A stretch of DNA of 64,000 bases, from the NCBI GenBank assembly GCA_027459525.1, contig DAIDIC010000210.1:12326-76325 (forward strand), in the 5' to 3' direction. The notes below the pieces were generated by a model that saw only the letters and a list, made by a program, of their open reading frames with translations, made no database searches and was not told the origin of the DNA. The translations under genes were made by a program, and so were the position numbers. Within the stretch, counting starts at the first letter, position 1. Every line of letters starts with the position of its first letter. The stretch is from Ktedonobacteria bacterium. GTDB lineage: Bacteria > Chloroflexota > Ktedonobacteria > Ktedonobacterales > JACDGC01. Shown here piece after piece: positions 28,454 to 40,261 of this stretch.

Positions 28454-29953
28454 TTGTATCAATGGCAATCTTCTTCGGAATTTGATCACAGCCTGCGCGC
28501 ATTAGGCGATGTATACCGATTAAATATCTTACGACTGCTTGCTTCGCAAGGAGATATGACGGTATCAGAAATTACTCAGACACTTGGAAAGAGTCAGCCG
28601 CTTATCTCATTTCACTTGCGCATCCTGCGTGAGGCAGAAATTGTGCAAAAAATACAGCGCGGACGACAAGCCTATTATTCCGTAAACGATCGGGCGCTTT
28701 CGCGCATATATTCCGCAATAAACCGCTTTATTTTTGCCGCGACACCGCATGGCAATGCGCCAAACGGCCGGCAAACACCTGCAAAGGCGCCACATATACA
28801 GGCGCAAGAATCTACAAGGGAGAAATTTTCAATGGGCAAAAAAGTTCGGGTTGCAGTTATCGGCGCCGGTAACTGCGCATCCTCATTTGTTCAAGGTGTG
28901 CAATACTACCAAAACGCCAGCGAACAAGATTTTATTCCAGGCCTTATGCATGTCAACTTAGGCGGATATCATATTCATGATATCGAATTCAGCGCCGCGT
29001 TTGATATTGATTCCACCAAGGTTGGCAAAGACCTGAGTGAAGCAATTTTCTCGGGACCTAACAATACCTATAAGTTTTCCGACGTTCCCAACTTGGGCGT
29101 TACCGTAAATCGCGGCATGACACACGACGGCTTAGGCAAATATCTGTCGCAAGTGATAACTAAAGCGCCGGGATCAACCAGCGATATTGTAAAAATTCTG
29201 CGCGACACCGGCACCGATGTTGTAGTTAATTATCTTCCGGTAGGCAGCGAAACCGCTACCAAATGGTATGTTGAACAAGTGCTGCGCGCCGGCTGCGGCT
29301 TTGTTAACTGCATTCCTGTTTTTATTGGACGTGAGCAATATTGGCGCGAACGCTTTGAAGCAGAACATTTGCCGATTGTTGGCGATGATATTAAAAGTCA
29401 GGTCGGCGCCACCATTGTGCACCGTACACTTACCAGACTGTTCCGCGAGCGCGGTGTTCGCTTAGAGCGCACCATGCAGCTAAACGTCGGCGGCAACACC
29501 GATTTCTTAAACATGCTTGAGCGCGAACGATTGGAATCGAAGAAAATCTCGAAAACTAATTCGGTAACCAGCCAGTTAGATTATAATATTGGCGCCGAAA
29601 ACGTGCATATCGGCCCCAGTGACTATGTTGCATGGCTTACAGACCGCAAATGGGCCTACATTCGCATGGAAGGCCGCACATTCGGCGATGTTCCCTTAAA
29701 TATGGAACTGAAATTAGAGGTATGGGATTCACCCAATTCCGCAGGGGTGGTTATAGACGCCGTCCGTTGCGCAAAATTAGCAAAAGATAATGATGTCAGC
29801 GGCGCGCTGCTTGGTCCTTCCGCCTACTTTATGAAATCGCCGCCAGTGCAATATACCGATCCGCAGGCGCGGATTATGGTAGAGCAATTTATCAGTGAAT
29901 ACGGCGCAGGAGCCGCCGCCGCTCAGCCTTTCACTGAAACACCGGCTGAATAA
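28454..29953 (+). CDS. ino1: ArsR-type winged-HTH domain fused in frame to myo-inositol-1-phosphate synthase
   Basis: Residues about 14-80, [63 protein letters not shown], match ArsR/SmtB. From [26 protein letters not shown] the sequence is a bacterial/archaeal-type MIPS. No stop between the two parts. Internal ATG 28832 has its own GGGAG RBS. The outer start is TTG. Confidence 0.75.
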
Positions 29954-31729: not shown

Positions 31730-32272
31730 ATGGCTACCCCAACAACTGTCACTTGGAATATTGACGCTGCGCACACACATGTTGAATTTGCTGTAAAGCA
31801 TATGATGTTTTCTACCGTTAAAGGCAGTTTTGCCGATGTAAAAGGAACTATCACCGAACACGCAACCGACAAATCATTATCATCCGTTCAAGCTGAAGTA
31901 ACAGTAAATTCTATTAGCACCGGTGATGAAAAACGTGATGGGCACCTGCGCTCTGCAGATTTCTTTGATGTGGAAACCTACCCAACAATTTCATTTAAAA
32001 GCACAAAGGTAGAACACGCCGGCGGCGATCACTATAAAGTATATGGCGATTTCACCATGCACGGCGTTACAAAAGAGATTGTTTTCAACGCTGAATTTAC
32101 CGGAACCGGCAAAAATCCATGGGGCGCAACCGTTATGGGACTGACTGCCGAAACCAAAATTAACCGGAAAGATTTTAATTTAAACTGGAACGCAGCGCTG
32201 GAAACCGGTGGTGTGCTTGTTGGTGAAGAAGTGAAACTGACATTGGATGTTGAAGCTACCGCAGCCGCATAA
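31730..32272 (+). CDS. YceI-family polyisoprenoid-binding protein
   Basis: WNIDAAHTHVEFAVKHMMFSTVKGSF and the overall YceI pattern. Confidence 0.85.
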   Translation: MATPTTVTWNIDAAHTHVEFAVKHMMFSTVKGSFADVKGTITEHATDKSLSSVQAEVTVNSISTGDEKRDGHLRSADFFDVETYPTISFKSTKVEHAGGDHYKVYGDFTMHGVTKEIVFNAEFTGTGKNPWGATVMGLTAETKINRKDFNLNWNAALETGGVLVGEEVKLTLDVEATAAA

Positions 32273-32339: not shown

Positions 32340-32382
32340 AAAACTGCTATAGATAAAGTCGGCGCGCCTGCTGACGCCGCTT

Positions 32383-34731
32383 TTACATCGGAAATAATAC
32401 TGCTTGTTCCGGGGGAGAAAAAAATTCGGCAAAAACGGCGCGGCTCAGCCCATTTTCTAATTTTGCGGCGTATTGATTGCGCAAAATTTTTTTATAATAT
32501 GCAACATCATAGTTGCGGGTATCTGCTCCGGTATATAAAGTAACTTGGCGCTGTCCGGCGTAATAAAACCGTATGCGTTCGCCTTTTGCCCATACCGTTT
32601 TGCCTGCCGCAAGCATCGCTTCATAGGGCGCTTCGCGGCGTGTTTGGCGGGTGTTTAGATATTCTTTGCTGCTTTTTGTCAGCCGCGCAGGTATCAGCAT
32701 ATCTTCTAACGGCAGCGCTTTTTCGGCAAGAAGCGTAAGATAGCGTTGAAATATTTGCGGGATAAGCGCGCTATTATCGCGCAGCAACGCCGAAACGATT
32801 TCCGTAAGAAAATCGGCGCCAAACTTCTCAAATTTGCTGGAGCGAAACGCCACACCTTTTAAGATGATGATATCGTCATAGGTAAGCAGCGCATAGTTTT
32901 TCACCTCATGCGAAAGCATGGCCGCATATCGGCCCTCATATTCCAAATGTATCAACGGGGGCAGCAAAGTGTCTACTTCTTGAACGATGGCGCGTTCCTC
33001 AGTTTCACTCCAAGATTCCGGAACACTAAAGTATACACCATCGGTATCAGCTTCAATTAATTCTGCGCCGCGCGCCTTAAGTTGTTCGCAAATAACATTC
33101 AAGGTATCACGGCCGCGCTTAGTAATTTCATTTGCAGCGTTCATATCGGCAAAGCGCGCTAAACGCACGGAGCCTAAATAGCCATAGGCCGAATTAATAA
33201 TAATCTTCATTGCTGCAGAAAGGCTGTTATAACCGGCGCGCGCATTTTCCGGCAAAGAAGTATCTTTAGATAATTTTTTTGCTTGCAGGCGCTGCTCAAC
33301 CAACCGATCGACAATTCCCAGCAAAGCGCCTAAGCTATCTTGCTGAGATCCAATATGAAATTGTCGCATTAAGGATGGATATAAACTTGCCACATCGGCT
33401 TTTACCACATGTTTTTTAACGCCGGCGGCAAATAAAATAGTTGCCGCGCCGGAATGCGTTGCGCCATTGGGCTGAGTATACGCGGGAATAGCAGTTTGCG
33501 CGCGCAGATATGCGCGAAGCAGCATCGGCTCCAAAATTCCTGTTGCGGGTCCGGCGTCTGCAGCTCGTTCTCCGCGCCGCGGCGCCATTTTAGCCAAAGC
33601 AAAGGCCGCGCCGCCTAAAATTTCAGCAATGGAACCGGCCTCTATCACATCATCCATCGCATAGGCGCGCACTGCGTCTGGCTGTGTTTTCCATGTGTCA
33701 TACACCGCGCCGCCGCTAAGATAAACACGGTTTGGCGCGGCAACTCCAAAATATTTCGCCGTATCTTTCAAACCATGGTTTGGCAAAGCGCGCGCGGCAA
33801 AATCAAAACGCCGCACTGCGTCCAGCGTATCTATGATTTCTCTGCCTTGAATGCTGTAGCGCTGCCGGCCCAAATTAGCAAGCGGAATGGCGTATGTATC
33901 AGAATCTTCGGTAAATGCGCGTACTGCGCCATACCCGCGGGCAGAGCCGCGCGCAGTTCCCAGCACAGATGGCGCGCCCTTTCGGCCCAGCGCCATAGCT
34001 ACGCCAAGCTGTTGCGCGCGATAGAATAAAAACGGCAAATCAAACCCATGGATATTATGGTTTTCCAAAATATCGGGATCGGTTTCCTGAACAACTCGAC
34101 AAAACGCTGCCAATAACTCTTTCTCTGCGGCGGCGTCATCGGCAGATTTTGCGCCAATATCCAAAATACCCTGAAAGCCAAAATTAGAATGAATGGCTAT
34201 AAGAAACACGTGACTATCAGACGGATTCAGACCAGTGGTTTCAATATCAAAGCGCAAACGCCGTATATCGTTAAAATCCAGCCCTTTATAATACGTTCGG
34301 CCACTGGCAATAAGATATTGTTCTTCAGGGGGCAGCCGCAAAACAATATCTTTGCTTAGTTCACCTATATGGCTGGCTTTTGGGTATCCGCGCTGTGCAG
34401 CGCCTGCTAAAATATTTCTTTCAAGCAAACTATTATTTGCGCAGGAAAGTTTCCACTGCAGCGCGCCGGTTCCTTGCAATTTTTGCGCATAGATAACGGT
34501 GGGGTCTGCCTTTTCGGGAAATTCATATTGTATTTTTGGATACGTTAGCATAGCCAGATCAGAAATAAGCGCCCATGGGAGAAAATAATCGCGCTCTAAA
34601 ACCACAGGCTCACGCAGCGATGTGCGCCGCCATACCATAACCGAACCATTGTGCTGCGCCAATATCGATACAATACCGGGAGTAGTATCCCATCCCCAAA
34701 GCCAATCTTCCGGTGAAGCAATACTCATCAT
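32383..34731 (-). CDS. polB: Family B DNA polymerase (Pol II-like) with intact 3'-5' exonuclease motifs
   Basis: Exo I FDIETTG, Exo II NHNIHGFDLPFL, Exo III YAMDDV. Pol A DVASLYPSLM, Pol B KIIINSAYGYLG, Pol C EADTDGVYF. Start set to ATG 34731 (AAGG 5 nt upstream). Confidence 0.9.
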   Translation of the reverse strand: MMSIASPEDWLWGWDTTPGIVSILAQHNGSVMVWRRTSLREPVVLERDYFLPWALISDLAMLTYPKIQYEFPEKADPTVIYAQKLQGTGALQWKLSCANNSLLERNILAGAAQRGYPKASHIGELSKDIVLRLPPEEQYLIASGRTYYKGLDFNDIRRLRFDIETTGLNPSDSHVFLIAIHSNFGFQGILDIGAKSADDAAAEKELLAAFCRVVQETDPDILENHNIHGFDLPFLFYRAQQLGVAMALGRKGAPSVLGTARGSARGYGAVRAFTEDSDTYAIPLANLGRQRYSIQGREIIDTLDAVRRFDFAARALPNHGLKDTAKYFGVAAPNRVYLSGGAVYDTWKTQPDAVRAYAMDDVIEAGSIAEILGGAAFALAKMAPRRGERAADAGPATGILEPMLLRAYLRAQTAIPAYTQPNGATHSGAATILFAAGVKKHVVKADVASLYPSLMRQFHIGSQQDSLGALLGIVDRLVEQRLQAKKLSKDTSLPENARAGYNSLSAAMKIIINSAYGYLGSVRLARFADMNAANEITKRGRDTLNVICEQLKARGAELIEADTDGVYFSVPESWSETEERAIVQEVDTLLPPLIHLEYEGRYAAMLSHEVKNYALLTYDDIIILKGVAFRSSKFEKFGADFLTEIVSALLRDNSALIPQIFQRYLTLLAEKALPLEDMLIPARLTKSSKEYLNTRQTRREAPYEAMLAAGKTVWAKGERIRFYYAGQRQVTLYTGADTRNYDVAYYKKILRNQYAAKLENGLSRAVFAEFFSPPEQAVLFPM

Positions 34732-34797
34732 GAAAACCTTTGCGAGATATTTTGTTCTAAGTATATCATAGCGCAAAAACCGCAGGAAAGTCTGCAG

Positions 34798-35304
34798 TTA
34801 TTTTTTGTCCGTGGAAGAAGCGCGCAGCAGTTCACATTGCGTTATACGCAGTAAATCTGCAGTTTGCAGCTGCACATCTATCCCGCGCTGCCCTGCGCTC
34901 ACATAGATGGTAGGATTATTGTGCGCAGAATCGTCGATATACATAGCAAAACGCCGGTTCAGCAGCGCCAAAGCTGATATGCCGCCAACTTTTAGTCCGG
35001 TGAGCAATTCTGCCTGTGTATGCGGCGCCATATGAACACTCTTCAAACCGATTTCGCGGGCAAATGCGCGTTCATCTAAAGATGCGCAGGCCGGCAGCAT
35101 CACAAGCATTGGGCGAGAGCTTGGCACATCGGAGAGTACAACCAATGTTTTAAAAACGCGATCTGCCGGGGCTTCAATCGCCTGCGCCACCAATACAGCG
35201 TCGCGAATATCTTCGGGATACGTGTGAATGGTATACGCTATCTTCATTGCGTCAAGCGTTCTCATTGCCAACGTTTTAGAGATTTTAACCATACAATTTT
35301 GCAA
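34798..35304 (-). CDS. ybaK: YbaK/EbsC-type Cys-tRNA(Pro) deacylase
   Basis: YbaK-like length and pattern (KTLVV, GGISAL). The true start may be an internal Met (35292). Confidence 0.65.
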   Translation of the reverse strand: MQNCMVKISKTLAMRTLDAMKIAYTIHTYPEDIRDAVLVAQAIEAPADRVFKTLVVLSDVPSSRPMLVMLPACASLDERAFAREIGLKSVHMAPHTQAELLTGLKVGGISALALLNRRFAMYIDDSAHNNPTIYVSAGQRGIDVQLQTADLLRITQCELLRASSTDKK

Positions 35305-35312
35305 AAAACAAA

Positions 35313-36512
35313 TCAGTCAAGATATTCTTTCAGACGGCGCATTTTGCTTGGCATGCGCAGTTTACGAAGCGCTTTCGATTCTATTTGGCGAATGCGCTCG
35401 CGGGTAACACGGAATTCGCGGCCAACCTCTTCTAATGTGCGGCCTTTGGTGCCATCTAAGCCAAAGCGCAGTTGCAAAACTTTGCGTTCTCTGTCGGTTA
35501 AAGCGGCCAGCACTTCATCTACCTGTTCGCGAAGAATTTTTTTTGTTGCGGCTTCGGGTGGGGTAAGGGAAGTATGATCTTCCAGAAAATCACTTAAATG
35601 CGAATCATCTTCTTCACCAATGGGGGTTTCCAAACTCACCGGCTCTTGATTCACTTTCACAATTTCACGGACTTTATCAGGGCTGATATTCATTTCCAAG
35701 GCAATTTCTTCAGGAAGAGGTTCACGTCCAAGTTCTTGGGTTAACCGACGAGTGATGCGCATCATTTTATTGATGGTTTCAACCATATGAACGGGAACGC
35801 GAATAGTGCGGGATTGATCGGCAATAGAGCGTGAAATTGCTTGGCGAATCCACCATGTGGCGTATGTGCTGAACTTATAGCCTTTAGTATAATCAAATTT
35901 TTCAACCGCGCGCAGTAAACCGATATTGCCTTCTTGAATAAGATCCAGCAAACTCATGCCTCGGCCAACAAATTTTTTAGCAACGCTGACAACTAGGCGA
36001 AGGTTAGCTTCTGTCAGTCGTTTTTGCGCTTCAATACCGTCATTGATAAGGCGTTTATTACGTTGGGTGTGTGTTTTTTTAATTTCAACCAGTCCTCGTT
36101 GCACACGAATAGCAAACGCAACTTCTTCATCATAAGAAAGCAGGGGAACTTTACCAATTTCGCGCAGATATACCCGCACAGGGTCATCGGCAGAGCATTC
36201 AGACTCTAGGGAAAGCAAGCTGGAGGAATGAGCGATATGGGTATGTACGCCATTAGAGTCATTTGCTTCTTCAGTATTTTCTTCTTCAAAACTCCAAGAG
36301 GCTTCATGCATATCTTCTGTTTCAATATCACCGGCAACGAATTGCTGCGCAATAATCTGAAATTGAGCAGAGGGGTGAGCGCTGTCTGAAAAACCATGAT
36401 CTGAAGATGTATCGGCAAAAATAGGCTCTCGATCGACAAGCTGCTGATCAGCGGTGTTCCACTGAGATGAAAGCGAGCGACGGCTATATTGGCGCATGAA
36501 CAATTCCTCCAA
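35313..36512 (-). CDS. rpoD: Primary RNA polymerase sigma factor (RpoD/SigA)
   Basis: Regions 1.2 to 4 are present: [78 protein letters not shown]. Confidence 0.95.
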
Positions 36513-36633
36513 CGAAACCTGTGTACTGCAACTTAAGTATGCATTATTGAGTTATACAAATCAATCAATAGTACGCAGAAAAAACTGAAAACTACCTTAA
36601 AACTAGCTGGCAGTTTTTTTTGCAGAGCATTTA

Positions 36634-38643
36634 TTACGTTTGAAGCAAAGCTTCATCATCGATACGTTTGCGTTTAGCTAAAAGCGTAAAGCTTTTTTCG
36701 CGCAACGCCTGAACAGAACTGAAATCGTTTTGTTCAGCTGCTTCATGCTGTAATACAGATATTTGGTTGATTGCTTCCGTCAACCTGACTTTTTTAAGTC
36801 GTAACGCCAGTTGCTTGGCTGTCCGTGCCAAAAGAGCGCTATCTTGTGTTTGCTGAACGGTATGCATTGATTTCAACCGCTCATAAACATCGACTAAAAC
36901 AGGTGAAGATTCTATCAACGCTGACGCAGTACTTTCACTATCCTGTCTGCCGCTTGCTTGCAAAATCAGGCTAAATAACGCTCTTGTCTCGGTTCCTTCG
37001 AAGTCATTCACTTCAATTATAACATATATCTCCTGTGCAATAATAGGGTAGTTAATAATCAGGGAAAGGATCTGTTCTTCAAGCGTGTTTCCTAGTCTCA
37101 TCCGCTCCGAAATAGCTCCGGATCTGGGAGATTCTGCCACAGAAGCGTCATCTGTGTCATAGTACTTATTAGCTATGCCATCTGGCGCAGTACTGCTTTG
37201 AGATCGTTTTTGTGCGGCGCCGGCGGCATATTTTCGGCGCAGCCGATTCATTTCATGAATAGCGTCGCGTTCCTGTAACTGCATTTCGCTGGCAACGCGG
37301 CGCACATACATATCGCGTTTTAAAGGATCTGCCATAACCGCAATTGCCTGAAGCAATTCATGGCTGGCTTTCAGGCGTTCGTAAGAATTGCGCAGATCGT
37401 GTGCGCCCATAATATTTTTTATGGCAAATTCAATTAAAGGCATTGCCGCATTCATTTGCTGCTGCCACGCCACAGGATTGGCGCGAATAAATTCATCAGG
37501 ATCTATACCATCCGGCAGCTCCATAATAGTAATCTCAGCGTTTACCTGTTCTTCAAACTGTATAGGGCTTTGTGGCAGCGGTGAATATTTCCCTGCTTTT
37601 TTACCTTTAAACCGCGGCTCTTCAGCTACAGGAGCCAAGTGTTGAGGAACTAACGAACGATCGAAGCCCTCCTGCGCAACTTCGATAGCGCGCAGCGTCG
37701 CCATTTGGCCGGCAGAATCGGGGTCGAGCGCCAAGGTGAGCTTATTGGTTAATTTCTTAATAATTTCCACATGTTTGGCGGTTATGGCGCTGCCAATACA
37801 AGCAACCGTATTACGAAAATGATATTGCTGCGCAATAATTGCGTCGAAATATCCCTCTACAATAACGATTCGGTCTTCTTTGCGCACCGCTTCCCGCGCG
37901 GTGTCTAAGCCATACAGCGTTGCGCTTTTATCAAACAGCGGTGTTTGCGGCGAGTTTAAATATTTAGGCGTTCCGCCGCCCAATTCACGGCCGCCAAACG
38001 CTATTACTCCGCGAGTATCGCGAATGGGAAACATAATACGGCTGCGAAAATATTCTGCCGTAAAACCGGTTTCCTCTTTTATATGCGCTAAACCGGCTTC
38101 AATAATCAACTGGCTGGGAAAACCCTGCTCTTGCAGAAATTGTAGCGCGCCGCCATGTTCCGGCGCATATCCCAAACGAAATTTTATGATTGTTTCGTTT
38201 GTAACTCCCCGAGATTGTAAATATGATCGCGCTTTTGCCGCCGCGTTCGCCGCCAGCAATTGATGATGGTACCACAGCGCCGCCGCTTCATTCACCTCAC
38301 GCAATTTCTGCAAATGTTCGCGCCGCTCTGCAGATCCCGCAGAAAACTCAATATCCGTAAAACCAATTGGAATCCCGGCTTTGTCTGCAAGCTCACTCAG
38401 CGCATCGTGAAATGTCAGAGATTGTGTTTTCATCAAAAAGGTGAATATATCGCCGCCTTCGCCGCAACCAAAGCAGCGCCACGTTCCGGTTTCGGGAAAG
38501 ACATAAAAAGAAGGTGTTTTTTCCCCATGAAACGGGCATAACCCTTTATAGCCTTTTCCGGAGCGCTTTAACTCCACAACCGCCCCTATTTCCTGAACAA
38601 CATCTATTCGGGCCTTAATCTGATCGATAGGGGAATCTGCCAT
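36634..38643 (-). CDS. dnaG: DNA primase
   Basis: Zn ribbon CPFHGEKTPSFYVFPETGTWRCFGCGEGGD, TOPRIM IVIVEGYFDAI. Start at ATG 38643 with GGGAGG 7 nt upstream. Confidence 0.95.
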   Translation of the reverse strand: MADSPIDQIKARIDVVQEIGAVVELKRSGKGYKGLCPFHGEKTPSFYVFPETGTWRCFGCGEGGDIFTFLMKTQSLTFHDALSELADKAGIPIGFTDIEFSAGSAERREHLQKLREVNEAAALWYHHQLLAANAAAKARSYLQSRGVTNETIIKFRLGYAPEHGGALQFLQEQGFPSQLIIEAGLAHIKEETGFTAEYFRSRIMFPIRDTRGVIAFGGRELGGGTPKYLNSPQTPLFDKSATLYGLDTAREAVRKEDRIVIVEGYFDAIIAQQYHFRNTVACIGSAITAKHVEIIKKLTNKLTLALDPDSAGQMATLRAIEVAQEGFDRSLVPQHLAPVAEEPRFKGKKAGKYSPLPQSPIQFEEQVNAEITIMELPDGIDPDEFIRANPVAWQQQMNAAMPLIEFAIKNIMGAHDLRNSYERLKASHELLQAIAVMADPLKRDMYVRRVASEMQLQERDAIHEMNRLRRKYAAGAAQKRSQSSTAPDGIANKYYDTDDASVAESPRSGAISERMRLGNTLEEQILSLIINYPIIAQEIYVIIEVNDFEGTETRALFSLILQASGRQDSESTASALIESSPVLVDVYERLKSMHTVQQTQDSALLARTAKQLALRLKKVRLTEAINQISVLQHEAAEQNDFSSVQALREKSFTLLAKRKRIDDEALLQT

Positions 38644-39022
38644 AGCGCCGCCTCCCAAGTCTCCGGCGGAAATATGCCCGAAATATCAAGGATTCGGTAC
38701 CACCGGCTGATTATATCGATTTGGTTTTTGTGTATGATGTTCTGTAACAGCAGAACTATTCCGCTGCCGCAGATATGTGTTACGTTACGCTTTATTGCGC
38801 TGCGCTTAGTGATATTATTGTACAAATCAGCAGAACATTTCATTTGTATGGGAAATTTGCTGCAATAAAAACTGCGTTACGCCATTTGACGGCGGCCAGA
38901 AATAATAAAACACAATATATTCATTGCCGGCAAAATTATTTTGGTCCCATACCTGCGAATAATTCAATTCATTCCATGATACAATATGCATATGAAACGA
39001 TTGCCTGAAAGGACGCTTTGTA

Positions 39023-40261
39023 ATGGCGTCAATTGAACCAACCGATACCATTCCTTCATTAAAACGCGCCGAACGATCCCTGCGAGTTATCATTTCTGGC
39101 GGGGGAACCGGCGGACACATCTATCCGGCGCTGGCTGTGGCCCAGATATTAGCTGAATCCTATGGCGCCGAAATATTATATATCGGAGACGCCGATGGCC
39201 CAGAGGTAAAACTGGCGCCGGCGGCAGGGTTCCGGCTGAAAACTATTCACGCCGGCAAACTGGTTCGCTATTGGTCAAAAGAGTTGATACAAGAGCTGGC
39301 CAATGTTCCGGTGGGGTTTTTTGAGGCGCGGCAAATTGTTCATGAATTTGATCCACAGGCGGTGTTTACCAGCGGCGGCTATGTAGCCACACCGGTTGGG
39401 GTAGCCGCGCGCGCGCATGGCGCTCCGGTATTAATTCACCAACAAGATGTATCGCCAAATTTAGCAAATAAACTGCTTAAACCATTTGCCACACGCATCT
39501 CGGTTTCGTTTCACGATTCGCTGCGTTATTTCCCCCCAGATAAAACTACGGTTTCGGGCAACCCGGTGCGCAAAGCAATACTCGACGCAGCCCAGTTATC
39601 TCGCGCACAAGCTAAACAATTATCAGGTTTTGCCGATGATCTTCCATTGATAGTAGTTACAGGGGGAAGCCAAGGCGCGCGGCGCATTAACCAAGTTGTA
39701 TGTGAAATATTGCCGGTTATTCTGCCAAAAGCGAATGTTTTGCATATCAGTGGCAGGCAGACATTCCAAGAAACGGTTGAACGTTCTGTTCAAGCGTTAA
39801 CCTCGTTGCCGGAAGATGTGCGCGCGCGATATAAACTAACGCCATATCTTGATAATGAAATGGGGGCAGCGCTTGCCGCCGCAGATTTTGTTATTGCGCG
39901 TTCTGGCGCCGCCACACTGGCAGAGCTTGCGGTTTTAAGTAGAGCCTCAATTTTAGCGCCGCTACCGCCAGGCTTTAGCGGATCTCCGCAAGAAATTAAC
40001 GCCAATATGTTTGCCGATAAAGGCGCCGCAGTGGTTATTCCGGACGATGCGTTTACAGCGGCGCGGCTCTTACAATCGGCGCTTAACCTGCTGGAAAACA
40101 GCGCGCAAGTACGGGCAATGGAAACAGCGGCGCAGCAATTTTCTCAGCCAAACGCCGCAAATGATATTGCGGCGCAGGTTGCGCGGCTGGGCGCCGAGTA
40201 TAGGGTTCAACGCCGCAAAGATCGCGCACGGCGAATAGTTGAACGAGCGTCTCGGCAATGA
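39023..40261 (+). CDS. murG: UDP-GlcNAc:lipid I GlcNAc transferase MurG
   Basis: ISGGGTGGHIYPALAVA, VTGGSQGA, ARSGAATLAEL motifs. Confidence 0.9.
   Translation: MASIEPTDTIPSLKRAERSLRVIISGGGTGGHIYPALAVAQILAESYGAEILYIGDADGPEVKLAPAAGFRLKTIHAGKLVRYWSKELIQELANVPVGFFEARQIVHEFDPQAVFTSGGYVATPVGVAARAHGAPVLIHQQDVSPNLANKLLKPFATRISVSFHDSLRYFPPDKTTVSGNPVRKAILDAAQLSRAQAKQLSGFADDLPLIVVTGGSQGARRINQVVCEILPVILPKANVLHISGRQTFQETVERSVQALTSLPEDVRARYKLTPYLDNEMGAALAAADFVIARSGAATLAELAVLSRASILAPLPPGFSGSPQEINANMFADKGAAVVIPDDAFTAARLLQSALNLLENSAQVRAMETAAQQFSQPNAANDIAAQVARLGAEYRVQRRKDRARRIVERASRQ

Follow-up and report, generated by a model that had tools for sequence, protein, structure and literature searches.

Why does a gene for a proofreading family-B DNA polymerase lie directly behind the genes for primase and the primary sigma factor, and does that position reflect a functional unit or an accident of gene order? 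This question is raised by a 64,000-nt stretch of the genome of a Ktedonobacteria bacterium, an uncultured member of the Chloroflexota (contig DAIDIC010000210.1, positions 12,326 to 76,325; hereafter, the window), in which four open reading frames (ORFs), dnaG, rpoD, a gene for a YbaK-like protein and polB, follow one another head to tail on the minus strand from 38658 down to 32383. A first-pass annotation of the window had described the last of these as a Pol II-like polymerase appended to the dnaG-rpoD unit, and had proposed that it is constitutively co-expressed with primase and sigma factor rather than placed under SOS-type control. The evidence set out below argues against a selected coupling of polB to dnaG-rpoD. 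Instead, we think it probable that the juxtaposition, though real, is restricted to one lineage and does not form a conserved functional unit, and the position of polB behind rpoD looks like a genus-level accident of gene order.

The head-to-tail order of the four genes on one strand is borne out by the ORFs together with their Pfam and NCBIfam identities. Using the start codons of the first-pass annotation we reproduce its gaps of 121, 8 and 66 nt, which become 136, 20 and 66 nt when the genes are taken as publicly called in this species. The public calls and the Shine-Dalgarno context favour starts at ATG 38643 for dnaG, ATG 36497 for rpoD and ATG 35292 for the ybaK-like gene, and a GGAGG lying 8 nt ahead of the rpoD ATG also points to 36497. 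With these starts, the minus strand encodes a DNA primase (dnaG, 36634..38643, 669 aa; the longest ORF runs from TTG 38658), a primary sigma-70 factor (rpoD, 35313..36497, 394 aa), a YbaK-like aminoacyl-tRNA trans-editing domain protein (34798..35292, 164 aa; previously started at TTG 35304) and a family-B DNA polymerase with the features of the bacterial G3, or Pol-epsilon-N-like, type (polB, 32383..34731, 782 aa).

DnaG carries Zn_ribbon_DnaG, DNAG_N, Toprim and DnaB_bind domains (Pfam) and scores 394 bits against TIGR01391 (NCBIfam cutoff 283.6). RpoD, which is 100% identical to database protein P0121, possesses sigma-70 regions 1.2, 2, 3 and 4 (Pfam) and scores 382.9 bits against the NCBIfam model TIGR02393 RpoD_Cterm (cutoff 354). 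The YbaK-like protein passes PF04073 tRNA_edit (74.5 against a cutoff of 25.5, E 1e-20) and falls below the YbaK equivalog cutoffs (118.5 against 153.25 for TIGR00011 YbaK_EbsC; 83.6 against 243 for NF007951). Since the general tRNA_edit domain was the sole model passed, the protein is called YbaK-like here rather than a YbaK or EbsC Cys-tRNA(Pro) deacylase.

Gene order in related genomes

Three further assemblies from this species (L028-L030) share an identical RpoD and the same four-gene arrangement, with DnaG called at 669 aa and the YbaK-like protein at 164 aa. Two of them (L028 and L029) have the 136, 20 and 66 nt spacings, and the third shows the arrangement until it stops 207 nt into polB. 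In a sister species, whose RpoD and PolB are 89% and 88% identical to those of the window, contigs from several samples are colinear with the window through murG-dnaG-rpoD-ybaK up to window position 34746 and end 83-147 nt later, while in the contigs carrying polB homology sets in at 34716, preceded by an unrelated stretch of 144-172 nt. The break points, directly upstream of the polB ATG, are separated by 30 nt. Because every sister-species assembly breaks inside the inserted sequence, the simplest reading that this suggests is a multi-copy element, resembling an insertion sequence, placed between ybaK and polB.

The unrelated sequence opens an ORF on its left side (MPTKHLELSIRTYVCEHCGLV...; L025:11751-11897, L026:5185-5309, L027:3711-3793) and closes one on its right side (...ACGEFVSPRVLAHVAVAKMQEENTEEDSA and a stop codon; L013:1-172, L014:1-158, L001:1-144). 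Neither ORF fragment has a match in NCBIfam; they may correspond to the terminal part of a TnpB-like gene. In the sister species, ybaK has a frameshift near ...DDSAQK (L025:11203-11700, L026 and L027), and three assemblies give it a length of 131 aa, with the conserved C-terminus ...IYVSAGQRGLDIQLQTADLLRITQCELL...TDKK and its stop codon readable in another frame, so that the gene may be a pseudogene or may carry a shared assembly error. The sister species thus shows the ybaK-polB spot to be structurally plastic.

A comparison of the window with the sister species also bears on the age of the arrangement. Synonymous divergence (dS) is 0.71 for polB and 0.56-0.79 for its neighbours, and, given this similarity, polB has co-diverged with the locus and the arrangement is older than the split between the two species. 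The ratio of nonsynonymous to synonymous divergence (dN/dS) is 0.094 for polB and 0.07-0.09 for dnaG, rpoD and murG; polB is under ordinary purifying selection.

Beyond this pair of species the arrangement disappears. Two sampled outgroups, with RpoD proteins 63-64% identical to that of the window, both retain dnaG-rpoD, and neither has ybaK or polB behind rpoD: small unrelated ORFs follow in one and a T2SSE ATPase gene in the other. To this extent the first-pass annotation was right to call a B-family polymerase directly behind rpoD unusual. We then surveyed other distinct loci carrying G3-type polB genes, including those of Ktedonobacterales, Dictyobacter, Gemmatimonadota, Acidobacteriota and others, and found dnaG, ybaK or primary rpoD near polB in none of the 19. 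Likewise, tblastn and ORF clustering across 15 other-lineage loci (16 with the window) revealed no polB neighbour conserved across lineages. At the four of the 19 loci for which gene calls exist (L017, L033, L034 and L035), the nearest sizeable gene upstream of polB is on the opposite strand, and polB must therefore have its own promoter there. A metagenome scan yielded only five loci, none of them informative on synteny. The first-pass annotation had itself named a lack of conserved synteny in relatives as grounds for abandoning its reading, and that is largely what we find: the four-gene arrangement is limited to the window species and, in disrupted form, its sister species.

A polymerase with the features of group G3

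PolB is identical to database protein P0001 and has the canonical layout, in which an N-terminal domain is joined to DnaQ-like exonuclease and polymerase domains (Pfam: DNA_pol_B_exo1/RNase_H_2, aa 176-324; DNA_pol_B, aa 483-777), aligning over its full length with archaeal PolB structures. All of its exonuclease and polymerase motifs are intact, as had been reported from the sequence. Exo I FDIETTG (D162, E164), Exo II NHNIHGFD (N226, D231), Exo III YAMDD (Y357, D361), motif A DVASLYPS (D446), motif B KIIINSAYG (K509, N513, Y516, G517) and the KxY motif, here KNY (K611, Y613), are invariant in a 14-sequence PolB alignment, as are E560, D562, T563, D564 and G565 of motif C (LIEADTDG) in alignments A2 and A3. 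Near the C-terminus, QAVLF (aa 776-780) aligns with the Q[PL]SLF of homologues as a putative beta-clamp-type motif. Judged by these motifs, PolB appears to be intact and capable of proofreading, and it probably binds the beta-clamp. The PolB proteins of the window and the sister species stop two residues past QxxLF (window 32383-32391); most homologues extend about 25 residues (...IRPVLT...) beyond the clamp-type motif.

The label "Pol II-like" proved to be wrong. Against the NCBIfam Pol II equivalogs, PolB scores 47-89 bits where the cutoffs are 570-1435 (NF004421, 88.6 against 570; NF004422, 61.7 against 1103; NF004420, 47.1 against 1435), and a phmmer comparison with E. coli Pol II gives E 3e-9 over about 150 residues. 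Among relatives with solved structures the Thermococcales PolB proteins are best (E 3e-30). A structural model of PolB was generated using AlphaFold and served just to confirm the family-B fold, being mediocre (predicted local distance difference test, pLDDT, 67.5; predicted template modelling score, pTM, 0.49). Its top Foldseek matches are the same archaeal PolB proteins, aligned over the full length of the model with E 2e-24 and about 19% identity, at a TM-score of 0.39 that reflects the mediocre model.

The features of PolB instead fit the bacterial group G3, which was defined by Kazlauskas et al. 2020 as kin of the N-terminal half of Pol epsilon (PMC7544198). The conserved glutamate of motif C is the clearest synapomorphy of G3, B10 and Pol-epsilon-N (PMC7544198). 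In a 2026 survey of bacterial polymerases, G3 ranks second in abundance among bacterial family-B groups, is experimentally uncharacterised, and is marked by intact exonuclease and polymerase sites and a beta-clamp motif (PMC12926913). Homologues of PolB were found in Ktedonobacterales, Myxococcota, Gemmatimonadota, Acidobacteriota, Ignavibacteria and Rhodothermales, the nearest outside the sister species being about 50% identical and coming from several phyla, a spread in keeping with G3 being described as the bacterial group of widest taxonomic range. Placed in this way by its sequence features, PolB would be an additional, clean and intact representative of a group already described.

Expression and origin of polB

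Whether polB is transcribed with its upstream neighbours turns in part on the 66-nt gap between ybaK and polB (34732..34797, minus strand). Reading along that strand, the gap holds a hairpin (CTGCAG-actttc-CTGCGG, 34797-34780), a T5 run directly after it (34779-34775), an extended -10-like TGaTATACT that matches the consensus (34768-34760), AGAACaaaaTATCT (34758-34745) and a Shine-Dalgarno-like AAAGG ahead of polB (34741-34737). For a 79-nt stretch across the gap, the predicted fold has an energy of -16.4 kcal/mol (z -2.25), which 3 of 200 shuffles equal. The sister species keeps the -10-like block (also GCGCTAT) and TTAGAACAAAATATC, a retention that is not significant at about 85% overall identity, and generic scans ran at background (14 promoter-like matches against 12 expected; 12 terminator-like against 12 expected). 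Given the hairpin, the T-run and the extended -10-like element, co-transcription and separate transcription are both possible; the sequence would permit read-through, attenuation or a separate polB promoter.

The first-pass annotation had suggested a search for LexA boxes upstream of polB. We tested the E. coli, Cheo (Gram-positive/Chloroflexi), alpha-proteobacterial, cyanobacterial, myxobacterial and actinobacterial forms in 34650-35000, and additionally scanned the whole window for the core of the Cheo-type box, which, from work on Dehalococcoides, is the LexA form expected for Chloroflexi. No LexA-type box (CTGT-N8-ACAG, GAAC-N4-GTTC or other forms) was found in 34732-34797. Near matches carry a single mismatch, lie within coding sequence and occur at chance level (14 across the window, where 15.7 would be expected). 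The regions ahead of 15 homologous polB genes similarly had no LexA-type box, bar two single-mismatch matches at chance level, and no shared palindrome. With no such box upstream of polB, nothing argues for SOS control. Of the regulatory proposal, then, the part that set SOS control aside stands, while constitutive co-expression is a possibility that the short gaps allow rather than a conclusion, and proximity is all that speaks for an obligatory form of it.

These observations can be brought together as follows. The conserved core is the dnaG-rpoD pair, which related, Ktedonobacteria-like Chloroflexota also keep, and in the common ancestor of the window and sister species a YbaK-like gene and a G3 polB would have become placed immediately after rpoD in the same orientation. 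Some read-through from rpoD and ybaK across same-strand gaps of 20 and 66 nt is plausible. Nevertheless, we would expect transcription of polB to start from a promoter of its own, read-through at most adding to it, because of the hairpin, T-run and -10-like element in the gap and because polB stands alone behind divergent neighbours elsewhere. The role of the enzyme would most likely be accessory DNA synthesis, for instance in repair, in the filling of gaps or in accurate extension past lesions while on the clamp.

Several points weigh against a lineage-restricted juxtaposition in which polB is expressed from its own promoter. Short same-strand gaps generally predict co-transcription well. The gap hairpin is weak (6-8 bp, with G-U and A-U pairs) and is not kept in the sister species, and the extended -10 is a consensus match, nothing more. 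The contiguity of the two sister-species contigs is something we infer from their break points. Finally, in a high-GC Chloroflexota metagenome-assembled genome (L009:1-3556), a gene of the sigma-70 family precedes a G3 polB ORF by 131 nt, an adjacency that is unlikely to have arisen by pure chance.

The L009 locus was considered as evidence of an ancient rpoD-polB linkage and was downgraded: its sigma factor scores 290.9 bits against RpoD_Cterm, below the cutoff of 354, a GC-rich hairpin separates the sigma gene from polB, and its PolB is about 39-40% identical to that of the window, more distant than the myxobacterial PolBs. We treat it as an unexplained recurrence and not as orthologous synteny. 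The 5' part of the long L009 polB ORF contains two copies of the direct repeat GGGGCGCGATGACTC and the 20-nt palindromes GGGCGCGATAAATCGCGCCC and GGGCGCGATTTATCGCGCCC.

The alternative that fares best, though we consider it unlikely, is that the four genes form one operon, so that PolB would be produced constitutively along with primase and the housekeeping sigma factor and would have a housekeeping or replication-linked role. The shared strand with its spacings of 136, 20 and 66 nt, the lack of a LexA-type box upstream of polB, an arrangement that predates the sister-species split with a polB dS like that of its neighbours, and the sigma-polB order in L009 all speak for such an operon. Yet the arrangement is kept neither in the outgroups nor at other G3 polB loci, the sister-species polB is intact and constrained despite foreign sequence upstream and a frameshifted ybaK, a hairpin with T-run and an element resembling a -10 box lie between ybaK and polB, and the L009 sigma factor falls under the RpoD cutoff. 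If the coupling were true, it would provide a first functional hint for the G3 polymerases, which are widespread in bacteria and have no characterised member.

A second alternative, to which we give little weight, is that horizontal transfer or a mobile element brought polB to its place beside rpoD-ybaK in recent times, its adjacency being an integration scar. G3 PolB is patchy across phyla, with a viral origin proposed (PMC7544198), and the nearest homologues outside the sister species are, as noted, just half identical and scattered over several phyla. In the sister species, moreover, polB is flanked by foreign, repeat-like sequence upstream and, directly 3' of its stop codon, by a repeat of about 174 nt in two to three tandem copies (L014:2514-2854, L015:2514-3027, L013:7384-7574), whose copy number varies among assemblies and of which diverged copies occur elsewhere on L013. 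The same contig carries a tyrosine recombinase gene (Phage_integrase, E 1e-41) on the opposite strand 200 nt downstream of polB, and colinearity with the window ceases exactly at the polB stop codon. Against this, the GC content of polB (0.483) and its GC content at third codon positions (GC3, 0.439) are within one standard deviation of the window's 47 ORFs, no integrase, repeat or tRNA flanks polB within the window itself, and a dS in line with dnaG, rpoD and murG puts any acquisition before the species split. Ordinary composition and a dS equal to that of the neighbours make a recent transfer unlikely.

A further proposal, which we hold to be very improbable, takes a G3 PolB transcribed as last gene of a primase and primary-sigma unit, along with its recurrence in L009, as a sign that G3 enzymes have a growth-coupled, replication-associated and not damage-induced role, which could consist, for example, in extending primase products while bound to the clamp or in filling gaps on the lagging strand.

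The surroundings of the run mark its limits. Upstream it is bounded by the divergent murG (39023-40261, plus strand), and downstream by the convergent yceI and marR, both on the plus strand. No rpsU or other co-oriented gene was found upstream of dnaG, where the sole minus-strand ORF (38827-39120, 97 aa) has no Pfam match and is uncalled in public annotations. Directly 3' of the polB stop, a consensus scan picked out a weak terminator-like hairpin (32360..32379, minus strand), which folds no better than shuffles (z +0.33) and faces yceI, whose end is at 32272. The 136-nt dnaG-rpoD intergenic region (36498..36633, minus strand) contains, besides the putative Shine-Dalgarno sequence GGAGG, a candidate A-tract/U-tract hairpin; the centroid fold shows this hairpin as AAAAAACUG...CAGUUUUUU, with an overall z-score of just -0.78. 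Further away, at 28454-29953 on the plus strand, a 499-aa ORF joins an ArsR-type helix-turn-helix (HTH_5, aa 22-66) to a myo-inositol-1-phosphate synthase domain (aa 318-426), and may represent a regulator-enzyme fusion or an over-extended ORF call.

Comparison with known systems

The value of this analysis is mainly corrective, in that the polymerase is of G3 type and not Pol II-like, has no SOS box upstream and probably owes its position to accident; by itself it adds no new biology. With intact Exo I-III, motifs A-C, the EADTDG glutamate and a C-terminal Qxx[LF]F motif, the window PolB resembles the G3 group and shows no departure from its description, its C-terminus being shorter than that of most homologues.

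E. coli Pol II (PolB, of the G1 group) is SOS-regulated. The window enzyme shares with it membership of bacterial family B, a proofreading exonuclease, a beta-clamp motif and a presumed accessory role, but is distant in sequence, falls in a different published clade and has no LexA box upstream of its gene. As the enzyme is not Pol II-like, the contrast with SOS-regulated Pol II that the first-pass annotation had drawn is therefore not the natural comparison. By sequence and by fold, the best solved relatives of the window PolB are the archaeal PolB3 enzymes of Thermococcales (Pfu, KOD, Tgo), from which it differs in having a bacterial beta-clamp motif rather than a PCNA-interacting (PIP) box, at an identity of about 19%.

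The locus itself is best set beside the macromolecular synthesis operon, which comprises rpsU-dnaG-rpoD in E. coli and has a dnaG-sigA core in Firmicutes (PMC2824700). As in that operon, dnaG in the window lies directly upstream of the primary sigma gene on one strand, an order kept in the sister species and the outgroups. In contrast to it, the window has no rpsU upstream and a divergent murG, and the ybaK-like gene and polB have been added in a narrow lineage only.

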